From NCBI GenBank assembly GCA_049860595.1, contig CP187551.1: a stretch of 64,000 nt of DNA. One strand, given 5' to 3'. Of this stretch, positions 196-59,980 are shown piece after piece (position 1 is the stretch's first letter; each line of letters starts with the position of its first letter). The stretch is from Methanocaldococcus sp. 16A. Lineage in GTDB: Archaea; AGJL01; Methanococci; Methanococcales; Methanocaldococcaceae. The translations under genes were made by a program, and so were the position numbers. Below the pieces are notes generated by a model. It searched no databases, was not told where the DNA came from, and saw nothing but the letters and a program-made list of their open reading frames with translations.

Positions 196-292
196 TTTCT
201 CCCCACTCTTCATTAAACCATATAATATTCTACCTCTTAAGTATTCCCTAGTGTATTAAAGTGTTTAAGTCAACGTCTAACACACACGACTA

Positions 293-781
293 TTACACAA
301 AGTTCTTTTTTGGTGAATACAAAATAATCAACCCAATTAAAATTAAAGTTAAAAAAACACTTCCAAAAGTTATAGAAGTTTTCATAGGCTCATCTATATA
401 ACATTCATCTAACACATAATAAGGATGATAAGTTTCATTTCCTTTAATGTTAATCCCTTCAACCTTTAAAACATTTTCTCCATTTTCTAAATAATCTGTT
501 ATATCTATAATTACTTTTTTCTTATAATTTCCTGAACCATCATTAGCATCATCAATAGTATAAATTAAATTATCGTTTAGGTATATTTTTACCTTCATAT
601 TTTCATTTATATTACCATAATGGACAAAATAAAGTTTGTACTTGTAATTTTCATCTTTATTTATTTTAAAATCTTTTTCATATAGTAAAGTGTTCTCATT
701 TACTTTTATGTATCCAAAGTAATAGCCATAAATGCTATTCAAAAATAATAGGTGTAATAAAATCAATAAAATTTTTCTCAT
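293..781 (-). CDS. hypothetical secreted/membrane-anchored protein (beta-sandwich-like)
   Basis: 162 aa ORF with signal-peptide-like N-terminus and C-terminal TM helix plus basic tail. Confidence 0.6.
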   Translation of the reverse strand: MRKILLILLHLLFLNSIYGYYFGYIKVNENTLLYEKDFKINKDENYKYKLYFVHYGNINENMKVKIYLNDNLIYTIDDANDGSGNYKKKVIIDITDYLENGENVLKVEGINIKGNETYHPYYVLDECYIDEPMKTSITFGSVFLTLILIGLIILYSPKKNFV

Positions 782-1728
782 AACCTTCCTTTTTCTATAA
801 GTTGATAAAATTTATCGTTATCCCAATTTCCAAAATATACATATTTTCCTTTTAAATTTAAATGATTTAATGATAACCCATATTTTAAATAAATTAGTTT
901 TGGAACTTTTGCATAAACTGAAATATCCCCCTTATTGACAAATATAAAAAATGGTTTTAGAAAATCAACTTTTTTATATGAATAAGAAACATTAACCAAA
1001 GTTGGATAATATTTTAGTTCAATTCCTTCTCCAAACAAACTAAAGACTTTGTCCCATGTTGATTGTTTAATATAGATATATTGGCATTTAAAGTTTTTGT
1101 TATTAAATTTTAAGTTAAAGTAATTTATTTCATAGTTATCTAATTTTTTCTTAAATAAGCTAATTTTCTTTGCCAATTTCTTCTTATACTTTTTAATGTC
1201 TCTATCATCAGGTACTTCTCTATTAATTATCAATTTTTTTACTTTCTTTTTCTTACCAATTTTGTACATTCCATTTAAAGCAGAGACATACTCCTTTAAA
1301 TTCATTTCTTTAAAATAATACTCTTTTCCAAATATCAAATGAGGAATATAACCAACATATTCTTTTGGAACTATAGTTATGCATTTTTTTATGAATTCAT
1401 TTCCTAATTTTATCTTCTCTTTATAGTTTAAAGAGTTTAAACTATTTGTTGGAGATAGCCCAATACTCTTTAAAAATAAAATGCTTTCTTTCTCTTCCCT
1501 AAATACTGGAATTTCATTATAAAATAGCAAAGTTTTAAATAATGGATAATTTTTTCCATAAAATAACAAATCATCTTTCTCAATGATATTAAATTTTTTA
1601 AGGTTAATATATTTAAATTTGTCATATTCATTTAAATAAATTAATTTTAATATATAAGCGAATTCTTTCGCATCTTCATTTTTTTGCATAATTTCATCAC
1701 ATAGTTTATCAAAACTCATGAACTTCAC
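778..1728 (-). CDS. hypothetical protein
   Basis: 316 aa ORF, 4-nt overlap with downstream gene, no recognised motif. Confidence 0.6.
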   Translation of the reverse strand: MKFMSFDKLCDEIMQKNEDAKEFAYILKLIYLNEYDKFKYINLKKFNIIEKDDLLFYGKNYPLFKTLLFYNEIPVFREEKESILFLKSIGLSPTNSLNSLNYKEKIKLGNEFIKKCITIVPKEYVGYIPHLIFGKEYYFKEMNLKEYVSALNGMYKIGKKKKVKKLIINREVPDDRDIKKYKKKLAKKISLFKKKLDNYEINYFNLKFNNKNFKCQYIYIKQSTWDKVFSLFGEGIELKYYPTLVNVSYSYKKVDFLKPFFIFVNKGDISVYAKVPKLIYLKYGLSLNHLNLKGKYVYFGNWDNDKFYQLIEKGRL

Positions 1729-1850
1729 TTATATTTTTTATTTAAACCTAATAAAATTTTATTGATTCAATAGCATTAGGATTAGTTATTATTTATAGCA
1801 AATGATACAATTTATGTTCAATTATTTTTCTAGTAAGCATTATGTGGGAT

Positions 1851-2723
1851 TTACTCTTTTTCAGTTATATATTTAAAGATTTTATCAACATCTATTCTCT
1901 CATCCTCTTTATCAATCTTATACTTTTTGAAGTATCTTATTACATTCCAAATATCTCTTTTTAAGTAGAATTCAGCATCTGGATGATATGTAGGAATCGC
2001 TTGAGGCCAATCTATAATAACAAAATCTCCACTCTCATCTAATAAGATGTTGAATTCACTCAAATCACCATGTATATAGCCAATTTTATAAGCTTTTTTA
2101 ACCTCTTCAATAATCTTCCAGAATAAATCTCTAATTTCCTCTTTACTCATAAATTCTGATAAATCTAATCTCTTCAGCTCTTCACCAACAACTTTTCCCA
2201 TAATTATAGCATGCCTATTCCATTCTATTGGCTCAGGAACTTTAACTGTTGGAAAAAGCTCATTTAATATCTCAAATTCTTGTTGAGCTGTTAATCTTGA
2301 AACATAGAGCCAGCTTATATGATGTTTATCAGCTAAATATCCCCTATATCTTTTTCCTCTTGTAAAGCACGTCCTACCATGCTTATGGAATTTTAAAACC
2401 GCCTCTCTTCCATCTTCTAACAATACATTATAAACATCTCCCTCCTTACCAACTCCTAACTTATTACCTATAGCCTTTAAGATACCTTTTTTAACAAATG
2501 CATTTACAGCTAAGGCATCATAACCTCCCATTGATACAGCATATCCATAAACACTTCTAACAACAAATCCAAATTTATTTAATCTTTTTAATCTATATAA
2601 CACATCCTTTTCTGGCATCTTTGCTTTTCTAACAATCTCATCTAATGGCACCCACTCATGATATCTCATTGACAGTTCTATAATTTTTAATATTTTAAAA
2701 TCTTCATCTTGTGCCTGTTTCAA
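1851..2723 (-). CDS. rio2: RIO2-type serine/threonine kinase (true start possibly non-canonical near 2750)
   Basis: N-terminal wHTH, GVGKEGDVY P-loop, IHGDLSEFNI catalytic loop, IIDWPQ. Confidence 0.92.
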   Translation of the reverse strand: MKQAQDEDFKILKIIELSMRYHEWVPLDEIVRKAKMPEKDVLYRLKRLNKFGFVVRSVYGYAVSMGGYDALAVNAFVKKGILKAIGNKLGVGKEGDVYNVLLEDGREAVLKFHKHGRTCFTRGKRYRGYLADKHHISWLYVSRLTAQQEFEILNELFPTVKVPEPIEWNRHAIIMGKVVGEELKRLDLSEFMSKEEIRDLFWKIIEEVKKAYKIGYIHGDLSEFNILLDESGDFVIIDWPQAIPTYHPDAEFYLKRDIWNVIRYFKKYKIDKEDERIDVDKIFKYITEKE

Positions 2724-2799
2724 TGCTTCAATTAGTTTTTTAATTATGATTATCCCCTCCTTTTATGTTAATTTAGTATTTATATATAACAATAATAAT

Positions 2800-3897
2800 T
2801 CAAGATAAAACTCTTTTTATAGCATTCCAAACTAAGAAAGATTGAGGTTTTAGAGTATCTTCTATTGGATTTAAAAATAAAATATTTCTTTTAATTAGAA
2901 ACTCTCTAATTTTTTTAGGTATTTTATCACACTCAATTATATAACTTTCCTTAAATAGAGACAATGCCTTAACTACTTCATTATATAATCCTTTGTCATC
3001 CTCTTTAACTTCTTCTAAAAAGTATTTCAATTTTGAAGTTTCTATTTTTAACATTTCATTTAGAATTTTATTTAATTTTTTATACCTCATTTTGTCAATA
3101 ATTTTATAAATTGATACTGGTTTCCCACCGACGTAAGCGTAAATTAATTCTTTTTCTTCATTAGAGAGACTTTTATTTAATATCTCATTAGCTAAAAAGT
3201 CCATAAAACTAAAGGCTGTTTCTTTATTAAAATCATCTACTAATATATAATCTGCCCTCTCTTCTAATTCCCCAGCGTTATAAACATATTCAATAAATAA
3301 ACTATCAGAGCTTATACAAAAAACATGACATAGATGTTGAACTTTAGTTAATGCTACTAAGAATTGGAATAGACTCCATAACAATAATCTATTACCGTTT
3401 AATGTAATTTCTTTAATCATTTGGAGTTCATCAAAAATTAATATAGGTTTTTTACCTTTTTCATTTAATTTAGCAAATAAGTATTCAATATATTGATAAA
3501 CGTCTCCTGATTTATCCTTCTTATTAAATATCTTATCAAAAAATGATTTAGGAATCTTTATCGGCATGCCTAAATAATACTTACTAATATCTTCCGAACC
3601 TTTAGCTAACATCTCTGCCAAACTTTTTGCATACTCTCTAAAATCATCTATCTTCGATTTCTCATCCACTTCAAATAAACATTCAATAAAGTTATCAACA
3701 TTTACTATATTTCTCGTCCTAAAATCAATAAAAAATGGGATATGTTTGGATTTATCTAATCTATTTGTTACTATCTCTCTTATCAATGTCGATTTTCCAC
3801 TGTTTATAGGACCAAAAATAAAATAAATAAAATTAGGCTCCCCCTCTATAATGGACAAAATTTCTTTTATCTCTTTTTCTCTGTTAAAAAATTTCAT
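2800..3897 (-). CDS. archaeal ATPase (ATPase_2 / MJ-type paralog family)
   Basis: MKFFNREKE start after GGTGA, Walker A GPINSGKS, Walker B IFDELQ. Confidence 0.88.
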
Positions 3898-6404: not shown

Positions 6405-6440
6405 AGTTTCACCTATATAGTAGGAAATATTAAACAAATT

Positions 6441-6479
6441 GGGGTGTATCCCAATAGAGGGGCAAAGCCCCTCTATGAT
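6441..6479 (+). repeat. hairpin module B (GGTGTATCCCAATAGAGGGGC-AAA-GCCCCTCTAT)
   Basis: Perfect 10-bp stem at 6454-6476; related copies near 39457, 54971 and 59784. Confidence 0.75.
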
Positions 6480-14814: not shown

Positions 14815-14874
14815 ACCCATTTTGACAAATAAAGTGGTAATGATAATAATATTATATGCTATGAGGTGAGAGAT

Positions 14875-15456
14875 ATGAAAGTTATAGGGATAAGTGGTAG
14901 TCCAAGACCTGAAGGAAATACAACTTTATTAGTTAGAGAGGCTTTAAATGCTATTGCTGAGGAAGGAATTGAAACAGAATTTATCTCCTTAGCTGATAAA
15001 GAACTAAATCCATGTATTGCTTGCAATATATGTAAAGATACTGGAAGTTGTCAAATAATTGATGACGTTGAGGAAATATTAGAAAAGATGAAAAAAGCTG
15101 ATGGGATTATTCTCGGCTCACCAGTTTACTTTGGTGGAGTTTCAGCTCAGTTAAAGATGTTGATGGATAGATCAAGACCTTTAAGAGTGGGCTTTCAATT
15201 AAAAAATAAAGTTGGGGGAGCTATAGCAGTTGGAGCTAGTAGAAATGGAGGACAAGAGACAACAATTCAACAAATCCATAATTTCTTTTTAATACATTCA
15301 ATGATAGTTGTTGGAGATAATGACCCAACAGCTCACTATGGAGGAACAGGTGTAGGAAAAGCTCCAGGAGATTGTAAAGATGATGATATTGGCTTAGAAA
15401 CTGCAAGAAACTTAGGTAAAAAGATAGCTGAAGTTATTAAATTAATTAAAAAGTAA
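14875..15456 (+). CDS. iron-sulfur flavoprotein (flavodoxin-like)
   Basis: ISGSPR, CIACNICK..C motif, GSPVYFG, RNGGQETT. Confidence 0.9.
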   Translation: MKVIGISGSPRPEGNTTLLVREALNAIAEEGIETEFISLADKELNPCIACNICKDTGSCQIIDDVEEILEKMKKADGIILGSPVYFGGVSAQLKMLMDRSRPLRVGFQLKNKVGGAIAVGASRNGGQETTIQQIHNFFLIHSMIVVGDNDPTAHYGGTGVGKAPGDCKDDDIGLETARNLGKKIAEVIKLIKK

Positions 15457-15502
15457 ATTTATTTTAAATTTTTGTTTTTATAAAAAACAAATAGTGATAA
15501 TA

Positions 15503-16345
15503 ATGATAGATGCAAAAACTAAGGTTATAGGGTTGATAGGTCATCCAGTAGAGCATTCTTTTTCACCAATAATACACAATGCAGCTTTTAAAGATAAAGG
15601 ATTAAACTATGTTTATGTAGCTTTTGATGTCTTGCCAGAAAATTTAAAGTATGTGATAGATGGGGCTAAAGCTCTTGGGATAGTCGGATTTAATGTAACC
15701 ATTCCACACAAAATAGAAATTATGAAGTATTTGGATGAGATAGATAAAGATGCTCAATTACTTGGGGCAGTTAATACAATAAAAATAGAGGATGGAAAAG
15801 CAATTGGCTATAATACAGATGGTATTGGAGCAAGGATGGCTTTAGAGGAAGAGGTTGGAAAAGTTAAAGATAAGAACATAGTTATTTTTGGGGCTGGGGG
15901 AGCTGCAAGAGCTGTAGCTTTTGAATTGGCAAAAGATAACAATATTATAATAGCCAATAGAACAGTTGAAAAAGCAGAAAACTTAGCTAAGGAGATAGCT
16001 AAAAAATTGAATAAAAAATTTGGTGAAGAAGTTAAATTTAGTGGGTTAGATGTAGATTTAAAGGATATTGATATAATAATTAATGCAACACCAATTGGAA
16101 TGTATCCAAATGTTGATGTTGAACCAATAGTTAAAGCTGATAAGTTAAGAGAAGATATGGTAGTTATGGATTTAATTTATAATCCATTAGAAACAGTTTT
16201 ATTAAAAGAGGCTAAAAAAGTTAATGCAAAAACAATAAATGGATTAGGAATGTTGATATATCAAGGGGCTGTTGCATTTAAAATATGGACTGGTGTAGAA
16301 CCTAATGTAGAAGTTATGAAAGAGAGTCTTAAAAAATGTTTATAA
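15503..16345 (+). CDS. aroE: shikimate dehydrogenase
   Basis: GHPVEHSFSP, NVTIPHK, GAVNT, NTDG, GAGGAARA. Confidence 0.95.
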   Translation: MIDAKTKVIGLIGHPVEHSFSPIIHNAAFKDKGLNYVYVAFDVLPENLKYVIDGAKALGIVGFNVTIPHKIEIMKYLDEIDKDAQLLGAVNTIKIEDGKAIGYNTDGIGARMALEEEVGKVKDKNIVIFGAGGAARAVAFELAKDNNIIIANRTVEKAENLAKEIAKKLNKKFGEEVKFSGLDVDLKDIDIIINATPIGMYPNVDVEPIVKADKLREDMVVMDLIYNPLETVLLKEAKKVNAKTINGLGMLIYQGAVAFKIWTGVEPNVEVMKESLKKCL

Positions 16346-16358
16346 TATATGTGATAGT

Positions 16359-17381
16359 ATGAGAGTAAGAATAAGAGACTTTATAGAGACAGTTGAAGGA
16401 CTATATTTCGCTGTAAATACATATTATCATCCAGAAGATAGATTTTTTGCTTTTTTAAGATATGTTCCCTATGAATTTGTAGATTTTGAAGTAGATAAAA
16501 ACAATATTAGAGAAATTAATGGAAGAAAGTATGTAAAGATGGCTGAATCCCAAAAAGCTTACAAATTTTTAAAAGAAAAATTTAACAAATATCTTTTTTA
16601 CGATGAAACAATCAATGTTTTAATGCATGCTATTCCAAAAGAAGATATTGAAAGAATTTTAAGTCCAAAAGATAGGTTAAATGATATTGTTAATGAAGAA
16701 AACAATTTAAGTGAATTGGAAGAAAAATGTAGAAAATTAGCTTTAATTTTAGAAGAGTATGGTATTCCAATTAAAAGTATGGGAGTTAGTGGATCTCTAT
16801 TACTAAAATTAAATAATAAAAATTCAGATATCGATTTTGTAATTTATGGGAAAGATATGCATAAAAAAGGAAGGGAAGCTCTAAAACAGGCATTTGAAGA
16901 TAATAAGTTAAAGCCATTATCAGATAATTTTTGGAAAATAGCTTATGAAAAGAGAATCAAAGATGGAACTTTAACTTATGAGGAATTTGTATTTTATGAA
17001 AAGAGAAAGTTTAATAGAGGGATTATAGACAATACAATGTTTGATTTATTATTTACGAGAGAATGGAATGAAATTAATGAAAAATATGGTGATAAACAAT
17101 ATAAAAACTTAGGTTTTATAAAAGTAGAGGGTAGAGTTTTAAATGATGACTTTGCCTTTGACAATCCAGCTGTTTATAAGATAGAGTGCTATAATGATGA
17201 AGATATAAAAGAGGTTGTTTCCTTCACCCACACTTATGCTGGACAGTGCTTTAATGGTGAAGAAATTATTGCAAGAGGTAAATTAGAGGAAGTTATTGAT
17301 AAAAATGGAAATAAATACAAAAGAGTTGTTGTAGGGACTACAAGGGAAGCATTTAACGAATACATAAAAATAAAGAGATAA
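16359..17381 (+). CDS. predicted archaeal nucleotidyltransferase-domain protein
   Basis: GVSGS...SDIDFVIYG NTase motif, C-terminal OB-like region. Confidence 0.75.
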   Translation: MRVRIRDFIETVEGLYFAVNTYYHPEDRFFAFLRYVPYEFVDFEVDKNNIREINGRKYVKMAESQKAYKFLKEKFNKYLFYDETINVLMHAIPKEDIERILSPKDRLNDIVNEENNLSELEEKCRKLALILEEYGIPIKSMGVSGSLLLKLNNKNSDIDFVIYGKDMHKKGREALKQAFEDNKLKPLSDNFWKIAYEKRIKDGTLTYEEFVFYEKRKFNRGIIDNTMFDLLFTREWNEINEKYGDKQYKNLGFIKVEGRVLNDDFAFDNPAVYKIECYNDEDIKEVVSFTHTYAGQCFNGEEIIARGKLEEVIDKNGNKYKRVVVGTTREAFNEYIKIKR

Positions 17382-24278: not shown

Positions 24279-25547
24279 CTACTCTATTAAATCTATTAAC
24301 TGTATTGGTTTACTTAAATGCCTCCTTGCAGAGCCAGGCACTTCATAAAATCCAATCTTTATATCTCTCTCAACCTCTATCTTTTTGATTTCATTGTAAG
24401 CAATAGATTTTTTGCATTTTCTGCATTTATAACCAGCTTTTTTACCCTTTGCTTTTAATGTACCTCCACAATATGGACATATTTTATCCTTAACAAACTT
24501 TTTTTCCAATTTTAAGATTTTTATTTTTTCAATATTTATTCCTAATGGCTTTTCTCTTACAGTTCCATAAACTGCCACATAATCTCCAACTATTAACTTT
24601 CTTATAATATCCCTAAATCCTTTTGTTGGCTCATAAGCTACACAATCAATTTCTCCAGTTCCATCTGATAATTTAAATATTACATGCCCACCTTCTATAT
24701 CTTTTGGCATCTCTATTATTTTTCCATAAACAATAACTCCTGTATTTGGATAAATATCCTTAATATTCATTCTTCTTAGATGAATATCAGTTCCATGATT
24801 TGTTTTAAAAATCATAAATCTCTCTGGTTTTTCACCTTCAATCATGTTCATAGCTTTTAATAAAATCTCTGTATTAATACCTCTAATTCCAAATAAAACT
24901 GGGCATGGTGTGTTTGGTGTTATTAAAACCTTATTATTTTCGTAATCATAGTTGTCAAATGTGTAAGGGAATGTTTCTTTATCCATTTTTATAACACTAT
25001 TTTCATCAATTACTCTCTTCTTTCCCCACATCTCCTTCTTTCTGTAAGCTAAAAGCTCGTAGGTGTAAGGTGGAGTTGATGATATAGCTCCTAAAGCTCC
25101 AATTATTCCTCTACCCAATTTATATTTTATAAACTCCCCCCCAACCTTTAAGATGAATTTTTCAGCATAATCAACGCTAACTATATCATAAAGGACTTTT
25201 TTATAATAATGGATAAGTTTTTCTCTATTCTCTTTATATTTTATTTCATCTAAAAACACAATTCCAGGATTTGTATTCTCACATTCAAAATCAGTGTATT
25301 TTTCAACTAAACTAATGGTTATATTTTTAATCTCTTCCTTATCTTTTGAATATAGCTCATCTAAAACATGTATTGCTACTCCTCCATTACCTCTTGTTTT
25401 ATATTTAACCATTGGATTCATTCTAATGAGTTTTGGCATATCTACACTGTATCCATGGCTTTTTAACTCCTCTATTAATAAAGTTGCTATATATGTAGTG
25501 CAGTATTTGTTTGGGCTGTCTGTATCGTCAATTCCGATAAACATCAT
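24279..25547 (-). CDS. tiaS: tRNA(Ile2) agmatinylcytidine synthase
   Basis: IGIDDTDS, CTTY, KTRGNG, OB fold, CPYC/CRKC zinc ribbon, ARRHLSKP. Confidence 0.95.
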   Translation of the reverse strand: MMFIGIDDTDSPNKYCTTYIATLLIEELKSHGYSVDMPKLIRMNPMVKYKTRGNGGVAIHVLDELYSKDKEEIKNITISLVEKYTDFECENTNPGIVFLDEIKYKENREKLIHYYKKVLYDIVSVDYAEKFILKVGGEFIKYKLGRGIIGALGAISSTPPYTYELLAYRKKEMWGKKRVIDENSVIKMDKETFPYTFDNYDYENNKVLITPNTPCPVLFGIRGINTEILLKAMNMIEGEKPERFMIFKTNHGTDIHLRRMNIKDIYPNTGVIVYGKIIEMPKDIEGGHVIFKLSDGTGEIDCVAYEPTKGFRDIIRKLIVGDYVAVYGTVREKPLGINIEKIKILKLEKKFVKDKICPYCGGTLKAKGKKAGYKCRKCKKSIAYNEIKKIEVERDIKIGFYEVPGSARRHLSKPIQLIDLIE

Positions 25548-38207: not shown

Positions 38208-39425
38208 ATGTATCTAACTAAAGAAGAAGAGAAAATATTAGATGGAGAGTATGGAGAGGCTTTAAGAAGATGTATGAATTTGTTAGTGTCTTTGGGAGAC
38301 ATTTATGGAGCTGAAAAATTAATTCCAATAAACTCAGCTCAAATTTCAGGAGTTTCATACAAAACCATTGGAGATATTGGATTAGAATTTTTAGAAGATT
38401 TTGCTAAAGAAAATGTTAAAGTTAAAGTTCATTCTACTCTAAATCCTGCTGGAATGGATTTAGATATATGGAAAGAGCTTAGAATAGAAGAGGAATTTGC
38501 CAAAAAGCAGTTAAAAATAATAGAGGCATTTAAAAAAATGGGAGTTGAAATTGGATGTACTTGCACACCTTACTTAGTTGGAAATCTTCCAAAATTTGGA
38601 GAGCATATAAGTTGGGCTGAAAGTTCAGCTGTGAGTTTTGCAAACTCTGTTTTAGGAGCTAAGACAAATAGAGAAGGAGGACCGTCTGCATTAGCATCAG
38701 CAATAATTGGAAAAACACCATATTATGGCTATCACTTAGATGAAAATAGAAAAGCAACACATATCATTGAATTAGATAATCAATTAATATCTAACTTTAA
38801 ATTTGGAGAGAGTTTTTATGGAGCTTTAGGTTATTTAGTTGGAAAGATTGTAAAAAATGGAGTGCCATATTTTGAAAATCTATATAAATTGCTTCCAAAT
38901 AATGATGATTTAAAATCTTTAGGGGCTGCAATGGCGGCAAGTGGAGGAGTAGCTTTATATCATGCAAAACATTTAACAGCTGAGTGTAAGGTTAAGGAAG
39001 TTATTGATGATAAAGTTGAGAAAATATCTATTGGAGTTGATGAGATAATTGAAGCTTATGAAAAATTAAATACAACAAATGAAGAACCAGATTTAATCTG
39101 TGTTGGCTGTCCTCACTGCAGTTTAATGGAAATTAAAAAAATAGCAGAGATTTTAAAAGATAAAAAATTAGATGCTGATTTATGGGTTTGTTGCTCTTTA
39201 CATATTAAAGCAATAGCAGATAGAATGGGATATTCTAAAATCATTGAAAAAGCTGGAGGAAAAATAATTAAAGATACTTGTATGGTAGTTTCACCAATAG
39301 AAGATTTAGGATATAAAAAAGTAGCAACAAATTCAGGTAAAGCAGCAGTATATTTGCCTAATTTTTGTAAAAGTGAGGTAATTTTTGGAGATATTGTTGA
39401 GATAGTTAAAAATAATGTAAAATAA
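38208..39425 (+). CDS. aconitase X catalytic subunit (probable phosphomevalonate dehydratase large subunit)
   Basis: MYLTKEEE, CTCTPY, WAESSA, TNREGG, GCPHCS, DTCMVV, TNSGK. Confidence 0.88.
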   Translation: MYLTKEEEKILDGEYGEALRRCMNLLVSLGDIYGAEKLIPINSAQISGVSYKTIGDIGLEFLEDFAKENVKVKVHSTLNPAGMDLDIWKELRIEEEFAKKQLKIIEAFKKMGVEIGCTCTPYLVGNLPKFGEHISWAESSAVSFANSVLGAKTNREGGPSALASAIIGKTPYYGYHLDENRKATHIIELDNQLISNFKFGESFYGALGYLVGKIVKNGVPYFENLYKLLPNNDDLKSLGAAMAASGGVALYHAKHLTAECKVKEVIDDKVEKISIGVDEIIEAYEKLNTTNEEPDLICVGCPHCSLMEIKKIAEILKDKKLDADLWVCCSLHIKAIADRMGYSKIIEKAGGKIIKDTCMVVSPIEDLGYKKVATNSGKAAVYLPNFCKSEVIFGDIVEIVKNNVK

Positions 39426-39456
39426 TTAAAAATAAGTGAGAATAGTAAAAAAATTA

Positions 39457-39493
39457 GGGAATATACTTGTATAGAGATTCGCCCTCTCTATGG
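39457..39493 (+). repeat. degenerate hairpin module B
   Basis: GGGAATATACTTGTATAGAGATTCGCCCTCTCTATG resembles 6441-6477. Confidence 0.5.
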
Positions 39494-39503
39494 AGTGGAG
39501 ATA

Positions 39504-39527
39504 ATGCTAAATCCAATAATTTTATTT
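39504..39527 (+). other. orphan duplicate of the cobD 5' end (MLNPIILF)
   Basis: ATGCTAAATCCAATAATTTTATTT vs ATGTTAAATCCGATAATTCTATTT at 39587; 3 differences, all synonymous. Confidence 0.85.
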
Positions 39528-39555
39528 GAACCTTTTAAAAAAAGGTTCATCAAAA
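39527..39555 (-). repeat. palindrome module A
   Basis: Reverse complement TTTTGATGAACCTTTTTTTAAAAGGTTCA matches 59900-59928 except one compensatory pair. Confidence 0.85.
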
Positions 39556-39586
39556 TCACCTTAGATAGTTTTATAAGTGTGAAATT

Positions 39587-40510
39587 ATGTTAAATCCGAT
39601 AATTCTATTTTTAACTGTTATCTTTGATAGAATTATTGGAGAACTGCCAGAGAAAATTCATCCAACGGTTTGGATAGGGAATTTAATAGCTTTTTTAGAG
39701 AATATATTTAAATCTACAAATTGTAAAAATATATATAGAGATTTTTTATTTGGCATCTTAACTACAACTATAACAATAGGAGTTGTAGGAATTATATCAA
39801 TTTTTTTAGAAAAATTTATCTTATTATTGCCATTTCCTTTAAATTATCTTATCTATGCCTTTGTTTTATCAACAACCATTGGATACAAATCATTATTTGA
39901 GTTCTGCAGAAAGCCAATTGAATATATTAAAAATAAAGATATAGAGAAAGCGAGGGAAGCTGTTCAACACATTGTTAGCAGAGATGCATCAAAATTGGAT
40001 GAAGAGCATATACTATCAGCAGCAGTAGAGAGTTTGTCTGAAAACATAACTGATAGCATAATAGGGGCTTTATTCTATGCTATTATTTTTGGATTGCCTG
40101 GAGCTTTTGTATATAGAGCAATAAATACCTTAGATGCAATGATTGGCTATAAAAATGAAAAATATTTATGGTATGGAAAATTAGCAGCAAGATTAGATGA
40201 TATTGTCAATTTTATTCCATCAAGGATAGCGGGGATTTTGCTAATTATTGCTTCCCCATTTTATAAAGGAAATATCAAGAGAGCAATATATGGATTTTTA
40301 GAGGAAGCTAATAGAGTACCTTCACCAAATTCTGGATATACAATGGCTACATTAGCAAATGCTTTAAATATAACATTAGAAAAGATTGGATATTATAAAC
40401 TTGGTAGTGGAAAGATAGATGTTAAAAAATCTTTAAATGCATTTAAGGCCGTTGATTGTGTAGTAATTATATTTTTAATAATTTACAGTTTAATCTGGTG
40501 GGTATTATGA
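39587..40510 (+). CDS. cobD: adenosylcobinamide-phosphate synthase CbiB/CobD
   Basis: GE..HPTVWIG, VSRD, ESLSEN..D, YRAINTLDAMIGY, SPNSG. Confidence 0.93.
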   Translation: MLNPIILFLTVIFDRIIGELPEKIHPTVWIGNLIAFLENIFKSTNCKNIYRDFLFGILTTTITIGVVGIISIFLEKFILLLPFPLNYLIYAFVLSTTIGYKSLFEFCRKPIEYIKNKDIEKAREAVQHIVSRDASKLDEEHILSAAVESLSENITDSIIGALFYAIIFGLPGAFVYRAINTLDAMIGYKNEKYLWYGKLAARLDDIVNFIPSRIAGILLIIASPFYKGNIKRAIYGFLEEANRVPSPNSGYTMATLANALNITLEKIGYYKLGSGKIDVKKSLNAFKAVDCVVIIFLIIYSLIWWVL

Positions 40511-58990: not shown

Positions 58991-59755
58991 ATGGAAAAAA
59001 AGGTTATAATAGTTGGAGCAGGTCCAGGGGACCCAGAGTTAATAACAATCAAAGGTAAAAAGGCAATAGAAGAGGCAGATGTTATTATTTATGCTGGCTC
59101 GTTAGTTAATGAAAAGCTTTTAGAATATAACAAAAAAAATGCTGAAATTTACAACAGTGCAAATATGGATTTAGAAGAAATTGTTAATGTAATGGTTAAA
59201 GCAGTTGAACAAGGAAAAAAAGTTGTTAGATTGCACACAGGAGACCCATCTATTTATGGAGCTATAAAGGAGCAGATTGATGAATTAGCAAAACATGGAA
59301 TAGATGTTGAAATAATTCCAGGAGTTAGTTCTTTATTTGCAGCAACTGCATCATTGAAGGTTGAACTAACTCTTCCAGAAGTCTCTCAGACAGTTATTAT
59401 TACAAGACCTGAAGGAAGAACCCCAATGCCAGAAAAAGAAAAGCTTAGAGATTTGGCTAAGCACCAATCAACAATGGCTATTTTTTTAGGAGTTTCAATG
59501 ATTGATAAAGTTGTTAAAGAACTAATTGAGGGAGGTTATAAAGAAGAAACTCCTGTAGCTGTTGTATATCACGCCTCATGGGATGATGAGAAAATTGTTA
59601 AAGGAACTTTAAAAGATATTGCTGAAAAGGTAAAAAAAGAGGGGATTAAAAAAACTGCCTTAATAATTGTTGGAGAAGTTTTAAATCCTAAGCATTATGC
59701 ATATTCAAAACTTTACGATAAAGAATTTGAGCATGGATACAGAAAGAAAAAATAA
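58991..59755 (+). CDS. cbiF: cobalt-precorrin-4 C11-methyltransferase
   Basis: VGAGPGDPELIT, YAGSLV, RLHTGDPSIYGA, SQTVIITR, SKLYD.F.HGYR. Confidence 0.94.
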   Translation: MEKKVIIVGAGPGDPELITIKGKKAIEEADVIIYAGSLVNEKLLEYNKKNAEIYNSANMDLEEIVNVMVKAVEQGKKVVRLHTGDPSIYGAIKEQIDELAKHGIDVEIIPGVSSLFAATASLKVELTLPEVSQTVIITRPEGRTPMPEKEKLRDLAKHQSTMAIFLGVSMIDKVVKELIEGGYKEETPVAVVYHASWDDEKIVKGTLKDIAEKVKKEGIKKTALIIVGEVLNPKHYAYSKLYDKEFEHGYRKKK

Positions 59756-59929
59756 TTTTGATGATGAAACTTTTTTTAAAAGCATAGAAGGAAACCCTCT
59801 ATTGCTATACACCACGTCCATTAAGTTGCCCCTAAAAGGGGCAATTAATGTCCAATATTATTGTGAGGCATTTCCGAGCGTAGCGAGGCAATGCATCCGT
59901 TTTGATGAAACTTTTTTTAAAAGTTTCAT
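59756..59929. repeat. composite hairpin cassette (partial module A, module B reversed, hairpins C and D, module A)
   Basis: TGATGAAACTTTTTTTAAAAG occurs twice; ATAGAAGG-AAA-CCCTCTAT; TTGCCCCT-AAA-AGGGGCAA; GCATTTCC-GAGCGTAGCGA-GGCAATGC. Confidence 0.85.
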
Positions 59930-59932
59930 TTA

Positions 59933-59980
59933 AAGCTCTACAACAAAGAGTTTGAGCATGGCTATAGAAAAAAGAAATGA
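59933..59980 (+). other. orphan duplicate of the cbiF 3' end (KLYNKEFEHGYRKKK*)
   Basis: 14/15 aa identical to 59708-59755 with 10 nt differences in 48. Confidence 0.9.

Follow-up and report, generated by a model that had tools for sequence, protein, structure and literature searches.

Doubled gene ends at hairpin repeats of Methanocaldococcus: the cbiB start of Methanocaldococcus sp. 16A as one case

The doubled start of cbiB (cobD) in the genome of Methanocaldococcus sp. 16A (G000) is one case of a genus-wide and apparently undescribed behaviour of hairpin repeats of a known type. At many of these repeats a short end of a neighbouring gene stands on both sides of the element, and the two copies differ like two working alleles, with a pN/pS of about 0.1. 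As a tentative explanation, which we hold to be possible but short of probable, we suggest an undescribed gene-exchange system in which a nuclease acting at a tagged hairpin would capture the end of a gene, tRNA or CRISPR repeat, and this end would guide a cassette into the matching site of another species, leaving the gene unbroken and bringing cargo of up to a whole CRISPR array. If true, this means that a tiny non-coding repeat moves between species on the homology of its neighbour rather than by coding for target choice, that housekeeping genes have their ribosome sites and the termini of their proteins rewritten, that overlapping genes such as acnX and cbiB become uncoupled, and that CRISPR arrays may be carried in a genus rich in them. 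The lesson for the locus itself is modest: the upstream ATG would be a fossil and not a regulator.

In the window (the whole stretch of 64,000 nucleotides that was analysed), codons 1-8 of cbiB are doubled at 39504 and 39587, as the original prediction had placed them, with three differences that are all synonymous (Table 1). With up to three mismatches allowed, the cbiB start matches the 1.58-Mb chromosome, on both strands, at these two places only, which argues against a chance match. The doublet of G000 is known from assembled sequence alone, and the sole DNA read run listed belongs to another species and carries the insert-free allele. However, the independently assembled sister genome G011, whose DNA is about 95% identical to that of G000, has the same doublet with variants of its own, and the same anatomy is found in further genomes, tile sets and metagenome contigs, leaving a negligible probability for an assembly artefact or chance match.

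The cbiB gene was found in 29 of the 30 relatives searched. In 11 relatives from the genus acnX lies upstream and its stop overlaps the cbiB start without any insert, while three others have a different gene upstream. The orphan copy and its seven upstream bases (39497-39527) are identical to the bases around the cbiB start of G001 and G015 (31/31), so that the cross-strain alignment of the acnX-cobD region called for by the prediction does recover the 39504 allele in relatives, and the 39504 copy would very probably be the stranded ancestral start of cbiB. The outgroups agree with the orphan at all three differing sites, and the working cbiB has nine differences from G001 in its first 60 bases as against four and three in the next two windows. 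The working start with its 31-base leader is likely to be an import, brought by a hairpin-repeat cassette from a different strain or species. A search for a donor of the leader found no other full copy in G000 or G011 and no match in the metagenome contigs.

Table 1. Features of the acnX-cbiB region and the second doublet; positions are those of the window.
Feature	Coordinates	Strand	Remarks
Studied window	G000:C1:160001-224000		Genome 30% GC
acnX, aconitase X-like large subunit	38208..39425	+	ORF; NCBIfam NF051439 match below cut-off
Replaced acnX end with its own spacer	39396..39468	+	Event 1; presumed foreign origin
Decayed D/E-type hairpin, ending in foot CTATGG	39469..39493	+	Likeness to D/E consensus
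Stranded end of ancestral acnX	39494..39504	+	Gives the GGAG and the TAATG overlap
Orphan cbiB/cobD start, codons 1-8, probably ancestral	39504..39527	+	Sequence comparison with relatives
29-aa ORF through palindrome	39504..39593	+	Overlap with real start not conserved
Palindrome A, left arm truncated at junction	39528..39555	.	Collapsed form of the 169-base A-B-C-D-A' mosaic of G011
Leader of working start, 31 bases, GTGA RBS-like motif	39556..39586	+	Identical in G011
Working cbiB/cobD, adenosylcobinamide-phosphate synthase	39587..40510	+	TIGR00380, 450 bits vs cut-off 166
Second doublet in window, cbiF (by eye), 3' end	59703..59978	+	Last 51 bases flank a 178-base mosaic

In G011 the same two starts, with the same junction and the same leader, enclose the full hairpin mosaic. 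G000 has lost 141 bases between two A-like repeats of this mosaic, and what remains is a single palindrome with a predicted fold of -8.3 kcal/mol (z -3.6; equalled by 1 of 200 shuffles). This collapse bears on the suggestion that the orphan start has been retained as the start of a regulatory leader peptide, coupled to cbiB translation or tuning it. The 29-codon frame from 39504 is open up to a TAA at 39591-39593, exactly as predicted, its stop overlaps the real start, a GGAG stands upstream, and the orphan codons are intact in two species. However, since the overlap results from the internal collapse of the element it is an accident, and in G011 the ORF encodes 39 aa and leaves a gap of 104 bases between its stop and the cbiB start, a lack of conservation which makes regulation unlikely and tells against the predicted coupling. 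Furthermore, 11 relatives are without the orphan ORF, and most doublets are 3' ends that are unable to act in this way. The GGAG had been taken as the orphan's own ribosome-binding site; the motif is present, but it consists of the last codons of the ancestral acnX. A leader peptide is thus very improbable, and incidental translation from 39504 is possible.

Upstream of the orphan, both G000 and G011 have a changed acnX end, a spacer, a decayed D/E-type hairpin and what is left of the old acnX end, which upholds the earlier suggestion of repeated events at one site. The last acnX codons differ from those of the relatives when the 3' ends are compared, and among the 12 relatives compared the replaced end with its spacer is common to G011 only; no second copy of it was found in its own genome. 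The donor tract is weakly visible, with 10-12 mismatches in the last 60 bases of acnX as against 3-13 in other windows. The hairpin folds weakly by itself (z -1.25) and is more decayed in G011, where the stranded acnX end is about nine bases longer. From these remnants we infer that two events, one from the side of acnX and the other from that of cbiB, would have stranded the old overlap and unpicked its stop and start. The two copies of the cbiF doublet differ by eight synonymous and two replacement changes. Both clear cases in the window are thus cobalamin genes, and the earlier caution that this may be chance is borne out by the genome, in which 2 of the 15 coding doublets lie at cobalamin genes (translations read by eye). 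Elsewhere in the window, positions 17368-17373 form an empty site; in G011 it is filled by an A-B element, with 6 bases duplicated.

The repeats are palindromic, intergenic, multi-copy and genus-confined; the mosaic is present in 16 of 17 genomes of the genus and the D/E pattern in 14 of 16 genus relatives, with 1 of 23 in the sister family. They are probably the published MJRE elements of Methanocaldococcus jannaschii (MJRE1-3, which we take to be the name of its palindromic repeats). The likeness is one of description, namely short palindromic repeats restricted to this kind of genus with reading frames running into them. Suyama, Lathe and Bork (2005; PMID 16182294) are cited for the M. jannaschii palindromic repeats in passages of PMC2229807 and PMC2996958. 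In the literature searched we found no description of doubled gene ends at these repeats, and Suyama 2005 could bear on the novelty.

The D/E hairpin consists of GTAT, two bases, a bulged stem and a closing (foot) pair, which covaries between C-G and G-C in 47 of 49 hairpins; the GTAT tag is kept in 39 of 45. The orphan starts directly after the closing pair, and at the D/E junctions listed neither bases common to foot and target nor a target motif were found by eye. At the A-type joint the outer arm is truncated by about 5-8 bases and the position of the junction varies by a few bases, with 1-3 shared bases at some junctions. The opposite end of the element is ragged, carrying 0-50 bases of unrelated spacer and at times cargo; on the working side, these spacers show no relation to the sequence flanking the orphan. 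What is doubled as an arm can be a coding 3' end, a 5' end together with its ribosome site, the end of a tRNA or a CRISPR repeat.

A BLAST search of G000 with the modules yielded 35 loci, and 31 after four weak matches had been dropped. Fifteen of these have a diverged 24-75-base copy of a coding gene end across the element, 11 or 12 of them 3' ends, and one more has a tRNA end. In a genome-wide scan for short direct repeats (64 clusters, by eye), gene-end doublets occurred at repeat loci only, and the remaining clusters were CRISPR arrays, tRNA clusters, within-gene repeats and other intergenic repeats. In six relatives with 80 loci, 40 of 95 element segments were flagged as doublets, some of them twice, and the anatomy is the same in metagenome contigs and in six more genomes or tile sets. 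The metagenome contigs gave 122 loci, reduced to 49 distinct hairpins with sufficient flank, and a doublet stands exactly at the foot in 27 of the 49 and on the opposite side in none, a control that is partly biased as the opposite side is often more element. The doublet test was positive at 6 of 1652 control intergenic positions that lie away from elements, CRISPR arrays and any other known cluster of repeats. The viral contigs gave no D/E hairpin match, and Rfam gave chance-level matches only, near the G011 element and cargo.

The differences between doublet copies are those of two alleles and not of decay. The doublets of G000 have 51.5 synonymous and 26.5 replacement differences, counts in which one frame was miscalled, the right frame turning its three replacements into three synonymous changes. 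In a wider set of 151 element segments, 66 were over the doublet cut-off and 46 were used, the other 20 being tRNA, CRISPR, frameless or repeated rows. The junction-near halves of these 46 doublets have 75.5 synonymous and 29.5 replacement differences (pN/pS 0.10), the far halves have 82 and 45, and not one of the 46 orphans contains an in-frame stop. The metagenome doublets likewise have 36 synonymous and 7 replacement differences. Plain duplication followed by decay is rejected with P ~1e-9 for G000 and 5e-16 for the junction-near halves, values which overstate the case since the set includes two miscalled frames and several G000/G011 orthologous pairs, so that the loci are not fully independent. 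At purB and cbiB, variants are swapped between the copies when G000 and G011 are compared, indicating that exchange continues after the birth of a doublet; polyploidy would favour such continued exchange. The gene bodies equal the sister allele right up to the doublet, meaning that the imported tracts are short. Allele import into the working copy could, on the other hand, mimic the synonymous bias.

This last point belongs to a rival explanation, transposition with a long, variable, host-derived target duplication as in IS1549 and IS1634, followed by conversion and allele import, since conversion or import into the working copy would make the two copies resemble two alleles. Two doublets are fully identical, over 42 and 35 bases, as a fresh duplication would give, the cbiF orphans track their own species, and an 8-base duplication-like repeat was seen by eye at a two-footed copy. 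Replacements also cluster next to the foot, where codons 1-3 have a pN of 0.14 and codons 4-6 one of 0.02 (42 junctions, including two tRNA rows read as ORFs), a pattern that fits an orphan refreshed from working alleles except in its innermost bases. Direct repeats of 8-514 bases are described for the IS1549/IS1634 elements in part of PMC2266710, and the duplications here are also variable in length (24-75 bases). However, IS1549 and IS1634 are two-ended DDE elements whose repeats are identical, whereas most of the copies here differ like alleles, although later exchange could mask an original identity, and the element has one ragged end. A second fixed end is absent, most copies are without terminal inverted repeats, the spacers are unrelated and cargo is present. 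DDE_Tnp_1, matched in 7 of 17 genomes, has no match in G000, G006, G016 or G001. Taken with the rejection of plain duplication and decay, this makes a long target duplication rather unlikely.

Empty sites give a further view of how a doublet forms. Against the empty sister allele, 7 of 11 sites (two of the seven read from printed alignments) are orphan-like at a distance from the foot and switch cleanly to working-like close to it, the other four being two self-matches, one identical and one ambiguous, and one further switch site was seen by eye. This is as a single crossover with a circle predicts, but the test is weak since loop-out from a filled ancestor in the sister would give the same picture. 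Five outgroups lend mixed support to entry by circle and homology. At the 5' doublet of L146, both junction-near changes of the orphan are synonymous and none of the five outgroups carries both, while G015 lacks the element and has the flank of the orphan. C1:11532 is empty in G011, G006, G001 and G016, and there the inner orphan and outer working parts resemble G010, which shares the junction. At a porB-like gene, the junction and spacer are common to G000 and G016, the site being empty in G010, G001 and G006; for atpD and cbiF the outgroups give a mixed signal. The same junction recurs in distant species with others empty, and likewise at two methylase paralogs and in different CRISPR arrays.

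At cbiB, the agreement of the outgroups with the orphan at three sites fits a one-sided join equally well. Such a join could be made without a dedicated enzyme by homology-facilitated illegitimate recombination of linear incoming DNA, the hairpin shielding a single-strand end from exonucleases, the gene body acting as the anchor and the shielded end being joined inside the recipient's gene. Consistent with this, the cbiB orphan is wholly ancestral, the working gene differs from G001 more in its first 60 bases than in the next two windows, both A and D/E hairpins act as junctions, and none of the transposase or recombinase families tested tracks the repeats. Some insertions also have no or only a tiny duplication (3 bases lost; 2, 6 and 12 bases), and at one site the ragged end is joined via a short likeness of the gene to module B, without donor spacer. 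Recombination of this kind usually deletes, however, and does not duplicate. The D/E junctions are one-sided (27 versus 0, with the partly biased control), the strongest hairpin, B, is at no orphan junction in the loci read by eye, and the tracts are short, the gene bodies matching the sister allele up to the doublet. As set out in part of PMC5361080, the process is homologous on one side and non-homologous on the other; the repeats resemble it in the homologous anchor on one side and the orphans left behind, but differ in that the joint is fixed at the hairpin foot, without shared bases at D/E, and the target is mostly duplicated. We regard this explanation as unlikely.

We give about an even chance to one-ended capture at the foot, followed by homology-guided entry of the gene end into the homologous gene of a relative. 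The repeat has one precise end, the 3' foot of the hairpin, and a ragged end with donor-like spacer or cargo. A nuclease would join the foot, in single-stranded DNA, to a site about 10-75 bases inside the neighbouring gene or repeat, and the product would be a small circle or cassette holding the captured gene end. This end would then recombine with the homologous end in the recipient, keeping the gene whole and orphaning the old end. The doublet would thereafter be a landing pad and exchange surface, on which the copies swap variants, cassettes become patchy across species and internal modules collapse, as at cbiB. At the latter site the process would have run twice, on the acnX side and on the cbiB side, unpicking the overlapping stop and start. 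Neither a circle nor an enzyme nor a donor was found for one-ended capture. The hairpin with its one precise end would be a direct bait for the enzyme.

Among known systems, the closest in outline are those with a single fixed end. Circles of ISCR elements are rescued by homologous recombination. For IS91/ISCR, the sections of PMC13181058 consulted describe one-ended rolling-circle transposition with a hairpin-bearing precise end and a variable other end, capture of neighbouring DNA and circular single-stranded intermediates. The repeats here also have one fixed end and one variable end with captured flank, but IS91/ISCR have a tetranucleotide target, whereas no common junction motif was seen here by eye, and the unit here is mostly 30-300 bases with the ends of housekeeping genes as its arms. 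REP/BIME/REPIN sequences with their RAYT (a Y1 HUH enzyme) share a bulged hairpin with a tetranucleotide at its 5' foot, the mosaic clusters and the compensatory stems; they differ in that the tag here is GTAT and no Y1 gene is flanked by D/E or A hairpins. PMC3733652, consulted for REP/RAYT, contains no word starting with or containing 'methano'. The repeats also resemble integrases that restore a gene end, since a diverged version of the end arrives with the incoming DNA and the old end stays behind, but there one enzyme serves one site, in contrast to the dozens of unrelated genes, at 5' and 3' ends, found here. Such integrases use tRNA att sites or, in the case of E. coli e14, icd.

Y1 genes are above the cut-off in 6 of 40 genomes and are absent from several copy-rich genomes, including G000. 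At the seven Y1 loci inspected none was flanked by D/E or A hairpins and two had a B module, and the genes found are those of ordinary tnpA+tnpB elements. Two or three left ends of IS605 type (L194, L184, L196) carry or adjoin a B-like hairpin, which may be a hint at its origin, and L192 and L193 are without one. The Y2 profile matched 0 of 17 genomes, but also 0 of 14 controls. IS110 Transposase_20 is found in 1 of 17 genomes and, like Y1 and DDE_Tnp_1, is absent from several copy-rich ones, among them G000, and the tyrosine recombinase matches in G000 are on contig C2 only. The genes bracketed by two elements were considered as enzyme candidates and proved to be ordinary enzymes. The island ORFs gave, besides a DDE element, a methylase, an ATPase and two proteins with a ribonuclease and a PH domain, respectively. 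Of the archaeal ATPases, 2 of 7 in G000 and 2 of 6 in G011 are preceded by an element; a lone D/E hairpin lies upstream of an archaeal ATPase gene at 6439-6477 of the window. Tiles of G011 (e.g. L184:8042-8611) hold a DDE element (DDE_Tnp_2/DDE_5) in about a dozen near-identical copies, with none in G000.

Several loci deserve mention for what the repeats adjoin or carry. The tRNA 3' ends doubled across an element are at G000 C1:627604-627918 and in L049, L071, L075, L078, L087 and L088. Part of a CRISPR repeat is the doubled arm in L052, L053, L123, L300, L312, L329, L339 and L341, and five metagenomic junctions hit the same place in the CRISPR repeat. A 1086-base island of G011 that is absent in G000 (L151:3871-4956) consists of a CRISPR leader and array behind a gene's stop; its right border is a D/E foot, and it may be cargo. 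L115:16184-16388, also in G011, has GC-rich non-coding cargo of about 200-300 bases, with four copies in G016 and no Rfam match. Reading frames end inside the element at G000 C1:824423-824555 and in L046, giving new C-termini.

The flanks of 5 of the 31 element loci of G000 (C1:42421, 433419, 558298, 627661 and 663517) are not adjacent in G011 and are possible rearrangement breakpoints, a count that may include tile edges. On contig C2 of G000, positions 230-3453 look by eye like a type IV CRISPR gene cluster that includes a CysH-like gene, and two tyrosine recombinases lie at 14860-15672 and 24358-24906. The 13-kb contig C3 has its ORF set present twice and so resembles a 6.5-kb plasmid in doubled form. 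Many intergenic sites (e.g. G000 C1:80070-80170 and 1112628), often near the hairpin modules, are occupied by another repeat, which is AT-rich, about 100 bases long and bounded by short inverted ends.
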